Origin: Octopus vulgaris
Lineage: Eukaryota
Length of the DNA stretch: 64,000 bases
Reading direction: 5' to 3'
Assembly: GCA_951406725.2 (NCBI GenBank)
Contig: OX597818.1
Location: 39,742,001 to 39,806,000 of the forward strand
The notes under the pieces are model-generated. The model had not been told where the DNA came from. It saw only the letters and a list, made by a program, of their open reading frames with translations, and did not search any database. How positions within the stretch are numbered: position 1 is the first letter of the stretch; each line of letters opens with the position of its first letter. Of the stretch, positions 31,701 to 34,700 are shown piece by piece. A program made the position numbers and the translations under genes.

Positions 31701-34700
31701 ATGACTAGTACTTTTTTTTATTAATACATGATGGAAAAAATTGCAAATTTGTTCCCAGTAAGTTTTTTATTTTTTTTTACGATCCCTTTTGATCAAAAAC
31801 CTACCCCCTCCTTTTTTTTTCTTCCCAAAAAGAAAAGCTCTACTTTGTAATTTGTCCCCTCTGTGTTCTGCCCTGTGTGGCTAATAAAGAAGCATGATAA
31901 AGAAACATAATTTCAGTCACAAAGAGATGTGTATAAATATTTCATCCCTTTAATATTCAGATCACTGTCAAATGTAATGCTTATTTGTTCATATTCTTTT
32001 GAATTAATCATGCGTTATTTCCTTGCTTTGAGATTTCAATGATGTGAACATCGATTTTTAAAATGATTCTGTTGGGTAAGTGTGAGGAGCTGGATCTGGC
32101 CAGTCTGAAAATAAAACATGTAGACTATTTGGGCCAGATGTTGCTGGTTTAACCCTTTTGTTGCCACATACCAGTTGAAATACAATGCCTTTGCTTGAAT
32201 TTTGAAAATAATGAAGAATTTAGTAACATAATCTGTTGTGTCTGGGGAGAGTCATTTTCTTTTTGTGCCTTATAATATAACACACTCACCGGTAAAATTT
32301 CCACTTATTTCTTATTTTTATTTTCCTAAAATTTTTGTTGCATCTTGCAACTTTTTCAAAAAAAAAAGAGTCAAAACTATTGAAAAGGTTGCAAGGCGCA
32401 ACGAAAATTTTAGGAAAATAAAAATAAGAAAAAAGTGGAAATTTTACCGGCGAGTGTGTTATATTATAAGGCACAAAAAGAAAATGACTCGCCCCAGACA
32501 CAACAGAATATGCTTCAACACACAAACTCATATAAAGAATCTTGCAAACCAAATCCAAAAACGAAATATTAGTAACATAAGATATTTATTAATAAGCTGG
32601 TGTCTGGGACATAAATTAACATAAAATTTTGAGGGCAAGCTTTAATTTAGATCAGGGGTTCTCAACCATTTTTATTTGTGGACCCCTTTGATTATAATTT
32701 TATTCTGGTGGACCCTCATAGTCATTTGATGTTTAAAAACTAGTTTTATAGTAAATTCTTTCAAACTTCCTATTTTGTTTTTCACACAGGTTGAGGTACA
32801 GGGTGGACCAAAATGATCTGACACATTTGGAGGCTTAATAAAAGCACAAAATAAGAAATAATGAAAAGAAAAATTTTATTTTCTGAATGTACATATTTCA
32901 TTTTATTTCATTAAGTTTTAAAAATTCTATCAGCTAAATGCTTCCCATCATTGTTGACACATTGTTGGAGATGTTCATGAAAGTTATCGATAACTCATTT
33001 CTTCTGGAATGGTTGCTATTTCTACACAAATTTCACGTTTTAATTCATCAATAGATCGAGGGCGATGACTGAATACTTTTCATTTTAAATATCTCCACAA
33101 GAAGAAATCACATTTCACCATTCCAGAAGAAATGATCCATAAAGTTATCGATAACTTTCATGAATGTCTCCAACAGTGTGCTGACAATGATGGGAAGCAT
33201 TTAGCTGATTTAATTTTTTAAACTTAATGAAATAAAATGGCATTATATGTACATTCAGAAAATAAAATTTTTCTTTTCATTATTTCTTATTTTGTGTTTT
33301 CATTAAGTCTCCAAATGTGTCAGATCATTTTGGTTCACCCTGTATATAAAACATTAAAGAAAGAAACCTGACTGTTTCTTATTATACATTCATCTAAAGC
33401 AAAAAATTTTCAGGCAGACCTTAAAACATTATTGTGGAACCCCAATTTGCAATTTTGTTGCGAGGACCCCTAAAAAATTTATATGGACCCTGGTTGAAAA
33501 CCACTGATTTTAAAACATGAAGTTTGTATCACAGAACCAAGGATGGTCTTAGGTTGTTATCAAAAGAGTTAAATGCTAAAAGAGTGCCTCAATAGTGTCA
33601 TTTTGTATTATTTGTCAACAGGTTTGATGTTTGAAAAGAGAAGAGTTATGAGAGTTAGTGATGATCATTGTATTAGTGGTAGTTTATCCAATTTTTTTTT
33701 TAGAAAAGTAAAGTAATAAGTGAATGTGTGTGTGTGTGTGTGTGTGTGTGTGTGTGTGTGTGTGTGTGTGTGTGTGTGTGTGTGTGTGTGTGTGTGTGTG
33801 TGTGTGTGTGTGTGTGTGTGTGTGTGTGTGGAGTGCTGAATGAGGTAAAGTGAAGAAAATGGTCAAAAGTGAAAGTAGAGGTCGATTGAGAAAGAAAGAT
33901 CATAGAGATGTCGAAATAGAGTGCAGAAAAGAGGAGAGGCAGAAAGGCAGACTGGTAATCACTGAAGACTAGTAAATCTTGCTACTTATCGTTTTAGAAT
34001 AGAAGTTTTTTCATCCACATCCAATCAATAAATAATGTTCATCGATATTTAATTTATTGTATATTCTAATGATAAACATATCCGTTTACTCTGATTCTAC
34101 ATATGTCTAATCGATTTAGTAGGAATATATATTGTTAATTTGTTTGTCATCATGTATACTTAGAACAGCCACATAACTGGGTTATCAAGCAATATTAATC
34201 TGTAGATCTTTGCTGCTTTCTTTTTAAATATAGTTGAGCAGAAACAACAGTTAAACCATTAAGTTTTAATGCAGATAAAGATGAGAGTAATGATAAGGGA
34301 ACGTTTCAAAAGTGATATGAAATGTGAAGTGAAATAAATAAGGAAATAAAAGAAACCTACTTTTTGTTTGTCAGCATTCGATATCTTTTTCAGCAAACGC
34401 TGTTTCACTGGGTCATCAAGTGTTGAAGGTTCAATGAAACAAACTAAACTAAAATAAAATAAATCATTCCTGGTTATTGCAACTTGTGATAACAAAATAA
34501 TCTACTGATGTCACAATATTACAAGAAAGTGTTCTTGAACACATATAAACAGCTTTTATTTTACACTGGTGTTACATGTCTATAGTGGTATTGTGTGGAG
34601 GCGCAATGGCCCAGTGGTTAGGGCAGCGGACTCGCGGTCATAGGATCGCGGTTTCGATTCCCAGACCGGGCGTTGTGAGTGTTTATTGAGCGAAAACACC

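Follow-up and report, generated by a model that had tools for sequence, protein, structure and literature searches.

The question raised by the element at 32232..32568 of the window, by which we mean the whole stretch of 64,000 nucleotides of Octopus vulgaris DNA that was analysed, is whether a short fold-back sequence with a hammerhead-like motif near its centre is a mobile unit in its own right or a piece of something larger. An earlier note on this DNA had proposed the former: a non-autonomous, retrozyme-like element, with neither a reading frame nor a tail, which is mobilised in trans by Penelope proteins. The analysis reported here points to a different origin. The element very probably consists of the pLTR and tail of an endogenous Penelope-like element (PLE), arranged as direct and inverted arms between target duplications; the RT/GIY-YIG protein of the same family likely made it, and it would have been dead on arrival. 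Of the copies which this PLE family leaves behind, the 337-base hairpin is of the shortest kind.

The element occurs twice in the window in opposite orientations, at 32232-32568 on the forward strand and at 9887-10211 on the reverse strand, and alignment shows the two copies to be 89% alike over 340 columns. Direct reading of the sequence confirms the target duplication proposed for each copy, which is 12 bp in length at the first (32220..32231, identical to 32569..32580) and 15 bp in length at the second (9872-9886 and 10212-10226, partly overlapping the end of the element). The division into a hairpin and a unique end is likewise borne out by RNA folding, which gives a hairpin of about 135 bp at -193.6 kcal/mol and an unpaired end of 57-60 nt. 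The forward copy begins with an inverted pLTR arm (32232..32359, reverse strand) whose outer end, at about ORF +25..+28, corresponds to the inner of two putative priming sites, and in which the copy of the hammerhead is broken by the loss of G12. There follow a copy-specific centre junction, which is an A-run (32360..32366), and a direct pLTR arm (32367..32511, forward strand) which extends from -117 to +28 relative to the PLE ATG. The direct arm contains a minimal type I hammerhead motif (32377..32413, forward strand), the sole match to our descriptor on both strands of the 64-kb window, with its predicted cut between 32410 and 32411, at -73. Neither of the two absences claimed in the earlier note survives this reading: the final 84 nt of the element are codons 1-28 of the PLE ORF, from its ATG at 32484 (32484..32567, forward strand), with homologous starts in sister families, and the unique end (32512..32568, forward strand), between putative reverse-transcription start sites at +28 and +84, is the PLE tail, poly-A being absent. 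No Rfam family reached its gathering score within the 64-kb window, and the 52 window matches at E<=10 were generic hairpins only, none of them a hammerhead family. A search of the PDB gave no meaningful match, and the folding of the monomer RNA was unremarkable (z -0.16).

The case for a larger parent is made by longer copies elsewhere in the 2.8-Gb genome. A genome search with the whole element gave at least 3105 candidates (all DNA candidate counts given here are taken as lower bounds), and each of the 40 that were scored extends over nearly the whole element, at 90-100%. When just the right arm and tail served as the query, the search retrieved copies in which the inversion is absent, partial or repeated, and 3 of 30 loci from this search have a CA-rich upstream region in common. 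Reading upstream from there, one meets first the 3' UTR, about 470 nt long, then a GIY-YIG domain with a CX4CxxC linker before it, and finally an RT and an N-terminal stretch rich in Asn. The RT of this family, which we call family A, carries a YVDD motif, and GIY-YIG motifs are present C-terminal to it; a 665-aa open stretch in the locus L110 has its nearest Atlas clusters at 0.96-0.97, most of them with RVT_1/GIY-YIG, and the Pfam matches to RVT_1 (E=0.008) and GIY_YIG_2 (E=0.013) lie below the cut-off. Searching with the N-terminal part of the ORF gave 30 loci, and in 15 of them the tail immediately precedes that part and points the same way. The frame that begins with the ATG at 32484 continues in L155 and L163, where it is open for more than 100 aa into the PLE N-terminus. 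Since the frame runs on from the ATG and the tail precedes the ORF, the arm is identified as the pLTR, and the unique end as the tail and the start of the ORF at once; the pLTR, carrying the ORF start, flanks the family A ORF on both sides. The longer copies thus run into an RT and GIY-YIG ORF, which upholds the proposal that the element is mobile and built by the Penelope RT/GIY-YIG machinery, while the notion of a separate non-autonomous element gives way to that of a 5'-truncated copy of an endogenous PLE, continuous in longer copies with the 3' UTR and the ORF.

Further features by which canonical EN+ PLEs are recognised were found as well: a single ORF with an RT and then a C-terminal GIY-YIG endonuclease, joined to the element; an inverted 5'-truncated copy with an optional tail; and a hammerhead motif in the pLTR. 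Close precedents are described in the Pen families of the rotifer Adineta vaga, which have their first codons in the pLTR, an optional tail, an inverted pLTR and duplications of 8-10 bp (PMC3846280), and the layout of pLTR, tail and inverted pLTR is presented as general for PLEs in PMC8557442. The present family shares with these the first ORF codons in the pLTR, the tail, the adjacent inverted pLTR, the Asn-rich stretch and the order of RT and GIY-YIG, but its tail measures 57-60 nt against the 31-40 nt given in the same two sources, and most of its copies are just two pLTR arms and a tail with a sharp 5' wall. The CX4CxxC linker, which PMC8557442 ties to the Neptune and Nematis clades, suggests the same placement here. 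Inverted pLTRs, tails and U3-A8 hammerhead cores have all been published for PLEs, and the element is therefore no new kind of mobile RNA. It represents a new PLE family of an established type, and the remaining interest is in a G3-C8 ribozyme core, in conserved priming sites and in an intact sister family.

No intact family A ORF was found, all long copies examined being truncated or broken, and none of 8 tail matches with long open frames runs on into the ORF, so that we infer the source element. Candidates in DNA searches by region numbered at least 2044 for the pLTR and tail, at least 1673 for the UTR, at least 1195 for the RT and at least 75 for the N-terminal part of the ORF. A copy number taken from a protein search (21,706 candidates) was rejected; the sister tail gave nearly the same figure (21,917), so the protein-search count is not family-specific. 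In sister family B there are intact ORFs of 1309 aa in many near-identical copies (L211:1971-5897 in G000:C17, and L210, L212, L213 and L225-L227), which are 61% identical to the family A ORF over 670 aa; at least 40 copies are identical over the first 84 coding nt, and the intact protein has no Pfam match at E<=0.1. The abundance of short family A candidates (at least 3105 and at least 2044) and the lack of an intact ORF in family A, whereas family B has one, are what would be expected if a hairpin or short RNA were transcribed, cleaved itself and were copied as a unit by PLE proteins acting in trans, as the retrozyme-like proposal holds, and non-autonomous derivatives of PLEs are described (PMC8557442; bioRxiv 10.64898/2026.07.22.740005). 

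A sample of 69 family A copies was taken by tail alone, in list order, from 150 tail matches listed; the sample leaves out the window copy, most matches retrieved earlier and the 8 matches with long frames, its ranking favours young copies, and three C29 loci in it may be duplicates. An inverted arm is present in 50 of the 69. Its outer end falls at ORF +17..+35 in 47 of the 50, the remaining three being split alignments (two were inspected), and in another set of 30 aligned copies both outer ends are likewise common while the centre differs. The reproducible inversion asserted earlier accordingly holds for the outer end and fails for the centre, which varies from copy to copy: the pair of centre junctions is distinct in 47 of the 50 inverted copies, and the copy-specific junctions imply that the hairpin likely formed anew at each insertion. 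Three junction pairs do recur among the 50, with similar junctions also among the 30 aligned copies, and such recurrence, though limited, would suit propagation of the hairpin as a unit; of the three, L248/L249 probably reflects a segmental duplication.

The ends of the arms depart from the predicted ribozyme cut as well. Of 119 arm ends, 31 lie at -121..-110, one at -130..-122 and 7 beyond -130. The neighbourhood of the predicted cut (up to 3 nt from -73) accounts for 4 of them, against 4-6 expected by chance. The ribozyme cut sets no ends of inserted copies; these pile up at -117, not at -73. The dominance of short copies, with direct arms passing -130 in only 3 of 69, is compatible with an independent short unit, but allele frequencies are equal in the left and right arms of family A, and the sequence runs on into the PLE UTR and ORF. 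Animal retrozymes are described as head-to-tail repeats processed by their ribozymes (PMC7229834; bioRxiv 10.64898/2026.07.22.740005), and the non-LTR retrozymes of these accounts resemble the present element in being short, low in GC, PLE-related and equipped with a type I hammerhead. They differ in carrying canonical ribozymes and releasing monomer and circular RNA, whereas the copies examined here are dispersed, either head-to-head or single with no head-to-tail tandem units among them, contain no more than one usable motif, and are themselves parts of the PLE. Retrozyme-like propagation of a separate element is on this evidence improbable; a weaker version of it, in which solo pLTR copies serve as short templates, may apply.

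A long and nearly perfect inverted repeat, a high copy number and AT-rich targets (the flanks of copies are 77% AT) also recall DNA transposons of the MITE or Foldback type, whose termini are long inverted repeats; on that reading the resemblance to a hammerhead would be due to chance. Symmetric repeats and a duplication of fixed length would then be expected, but the 57-nt tail is one-sided and the duplications range from 8 to 19 bp, and a gradient of 5' truncation, continuity with an RT ORF and covariation of the motif between families leave this reading with next to no probability. The duplications themselves are well established for inverted copies: 40 of 47 have one of at least 8 bp, and non-simple duplications are present in 31 of 47, against 135 of 2162 swapped-flank controls.

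A more serious alternative accepts the PLE origin but derives the inversion from fold-back self-priming, either by snap-back of the cDNA or on an antisense transcript, without a second target-primed cDNA. PLE inversions are explained by self-priming on an antisense template in PMC3846280. Such a process would readily give the near-symmetric copies in which both arms reach -98..-130 (12 of 50), as well as the short repeated template jumps seen at the centre of L045 and of the window copy at 9887. It would also give arms of one copy that share lineage variants, as they do at 371 of 434 sites in family A and at 64 of 70 in young family B, a concordance which implies that one source RNA or lineage usually supplies both arms. 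The extents of the arms, however, are difficult to reconcile with self-priming. Of 50 copies, 27 have an inverted arm that extends further toward the 5' end than its direct counterpart (12 show the reverse, and in 11 the two are equal). A single snap-back of the first cDNA cannot give those 27, in which the inverted arm cannot be a copy of the direct one except where a later deletion removed the centre. The inverted arm moreover has a fixed outer end which abuts the target duplication, and duplications of at least 8 bp accompany only 4 of 19 non-inverted copies, against 40 of 47 inverted ones, in a comparison affected by a mis-set left boundary in at least 5 of the 19 (later insertions, distant arms). 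When it is added that in vitro a lizard PLE uses two sites to extend the two strands of its target (PMC11167929), fold-back self-priming appears unlikely as the source of the inversion, if less so than the retrozyme-like origin. At three positions in family A (-52, -22 and -109) the arms are discordant in 22-31% of cases, against a background of 4.8%, which hints at two different RNAs per insertion in this family; young family B is concordant at the 64 of 70 sites already given.

The preferred reading, a 5'-truncated PLE copy made by target-primed synthesis on both strands, would operate as follows. The PLE endonuclease would cut the two target strands about 8-19 bp apart, as may be supposed from PMC11167929 and PLE biology. 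The direct arm and tail would come from cDNA primed at one nick, starting at +84, and the inverted arm from cDNA primed at the other, starting at about +28. Synthesis of each would end at random or at the 5' end of the RNA, likely at -117 as the pLTR start site, and the two would be joined head to head, often by microhomology. If priming took place within the first pLTR of the transcript, the product could be no longer than about 200 nt; this would account for the large excess of short copies over long ones, and it agrees with the drop in DNA candidates from at least 2044 for the pLTR and tail to at least 75 for the N-terminal part of the ORF. In the source just cited, a PLE protein cuts and extends both target strands in vitro from two start sites flanking the tail, and ribozyme cleavage is dispensable. 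The element in question, PAc (Poseidon) of Anolis, is like family A in having two RT start sites in the 5' end of the ORF which flank the tail, AT-rich targets, a hammerhead near the ORF start, and insertion ends that are not marked by cleavage (PMC11167929); it is unlike family A in the placement of the ribozyme, which in PAc overlaps with the ATG and cleaves 26 nt downstream of it, while the predicted ribozyme here is wholly upstream. The octopus copies provide support from within a genome for the two-site, two-strand priming which that study demonstrated in vitro for one lizard element, and they argue against ribozyme cleavage as what defines PLE insertions.

Family B retains the same two outer ends. 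In 54 loci, the end falls at +83..+87 in 44 of 46 tail-terminated copies, and 18 of 25 inverted arms end at +26. There is just a weak 5' wall in this family, near -200, with 10 of 71 ends at -187..-200 and 17 of 46 direct arms passing -260; it is much softer than the wall of family A, which counts against the preferred reading. The position -117 would be the 5' end or start of the RNA, and a strong RT stall would look identical. A G at -118, which might derive from a cap, is present at 17 of 36 short ends against a background of 14%; this was suggestive, but it was set aside as an indicator of the RNA end, most cases being explicable by microhomology at the junction and the cleanest young sister copy, L319, lacking an extra G. 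One family A copy, L045 (G000:C1:198483300-198483793), shows numerous short, repeated template jumps that end at the wall at -117 and is useful for mapping the RNA 5' end.

Although it does not bound the copies, the motif is, on comparison between families, a real minimal hammerhead for which cleavage is predicted. In the window copy it has a 3-bp stem I, a U3-A8 core, an extra G before G10.1, a 5-bp stem II and U17, and a palindromic AAUU replaces stem III. The sequence features of the minimal type I hammerhead, namely a core with a 3-8 pair, G10.1-C11.1, GAAA, U16.1-H17 and stems I and II, are all present. The motif recurs upstream of the ATG in three sister families, and across the four families the 3-8 pair occurs as U-A, C-G and G-C. 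The core of family B is C3-G8 with C9, and its position 17 is either U or C; family C (L216:1338-1383 and L229) has a G3-C8 core, a 7-bp stem I and a 6-nt palindrome; family D has a canonical core with C17, the full canonical motif being present in 5 of 29 loci and the stem II region in 12. The predicted cut is upstream of the ATG at -73 in family A, -101 in family B and -56 in family C. The compensatory changes in the 3-8 pair and in stem II, as judged from sequence, support the earlier identification of a U3-A8 hammerhead. In five rows from the four families, 30 of 30 cells are paired and three of six pairs are changed on both sides, and the descriptor found 0 matches in 20000 shuffles for each of three families; the descriptor was written after three motifs had been seen and the covariation set is five related rows, so neither figure is a probability. 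A strict descriptor gave no match in the sister families; it was relaxed once their motifs had been recognised by eye, and the relaxed form misses family D, with its G-U pair and bulged stem I.

Conservation within family A is less informative. All 13 core positions are kept in 106 of 181 arms, and raw variation among copies is 2.5% in the core against 5.7% outside it. Once 7 lineage-variant columns are removed the difference shrinks to 2.5% against 3.0% (p=0.23), so that the outcome which the earlier note had named as fatal to its proposal, a core no better conserved than its flanks, is partly realised; this is what is expected of dead copies. The lineage-variant columns are distributed as 0 of 26 in the core and stem and 7 of 88 outside, which are too few to weigh.

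Like the min-HHRs of PMC4209133, the motif is of type I with a short stem I, has one additional base between 9 and 10.1, pairs G10.1 with C11.1, has a palindrome at stem III and a U3-A8 core, and is matched by a second motif on the opposite strand, such pairs being 100-700 bp apart. It departs from them in its stem I of just 3 bp and its UUU triplet, and further variants, with G3-C8 and with C9, are present in the sister families. Natural U3-A8 cores are already described in PMC4209133 and PMC3088659; the G3-C8 and C9 cores are not among the natural variants in the passages of these two articles that were consulted, and their supplements may list them. A literature search for hammerheads with G3-C8 found nothing related, and Repbase or Dfam may already list the core or the family. 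The hammerhead is predicted to be active only as a dimer and to be inherited from the 5' leader of the parent; dimer cleavage by such variants is reported, in a secondary account, in PMC6765202. In a hairpin copy the complement would be transcribed first from either strand, which would mask the motif.

A further, tentative conjecture would connect these results, and we hold it to be rather doubtful. The retention of a 5'-leader ribozyme by four families, by way of U3-A8, C3-G8 and G3-C8, would mean that cleavage is under selection and yet does not bound the copies. A dimer-triggered switch might then clip the capped leader 56-101 nt before the ATG, whereupon the RNA would leave translation, and the 200-nt copies would be "strong-stop" cDNAs, primed from two sites within the ORF, one for each target strand, which run off the 5' end of the RNA. 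A literature search for "strong-stop" in the context of PLEs found no use of the term among the ten papers that it listed. Family B, with its many near-identical ORFs of 1309 aa, opens the points of priming and cleavage to biochemistry.

There are practical consequences for annotation. A repeat library would likely mislabel the element as a MITE, a SINE or a hairpin RNA, and the proper annotation is the end of a PLE. Inverted Penelope copies yield siRNAs in Drosophila (PMC3681739), and by analogy the thousands of 135-bp hairpins in the octopus may feed dsRNA to small-RNA or editing pathways.

In the second fold-back copy of family A (9887..10211, reverse strand) there are several template switches at the centre, and the hammerhead is broken by a change of A13 to G. 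The piece noted earlier at 17178 is indeed related sequence, but it is not a mere fragment; it lies in an older and longer copy of the same lineage (17003..17301, forward strand), which consists of the CA-rich PLE 3' UTR and the pLTR, ends near the inner start site and has a decayed hammerhead. A tail region of sister family D is present at 48540..48642 (forward strand), and other copies of that family have a canonical C3-G8/A9/C17 core upstream of the ATG. Outside the window, a minimal hammerhead with a canonical core, a 4-bp stem I, a CG palindrome and U17, belonging to a further, unrelated family, was observed at L182:1224-1265, about 240 nt from a family D copy.

Other mobile elements in the window can be assigned by motif labels. 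The segments at 56180-56720 and 60300-61700, with GIY-YIG-like frames, we take to be remnants of two other Penelope-type elements; a 618-aa open frame at 13870-15726 presumably encodes a LINE-type reverse transcriptase, and the segments at 7505-8410, 27001-27396, 50675-51064 and 58717-59091 are presumably Tc1/mariner-like transposase fragments. The hammerhead descriptor has no match in a second, unrelated fold-back element at 56860-57150, which folds into a hairpin of about 140 bp at -168.6 kcal/mol and is possibly the end of another PLE family.
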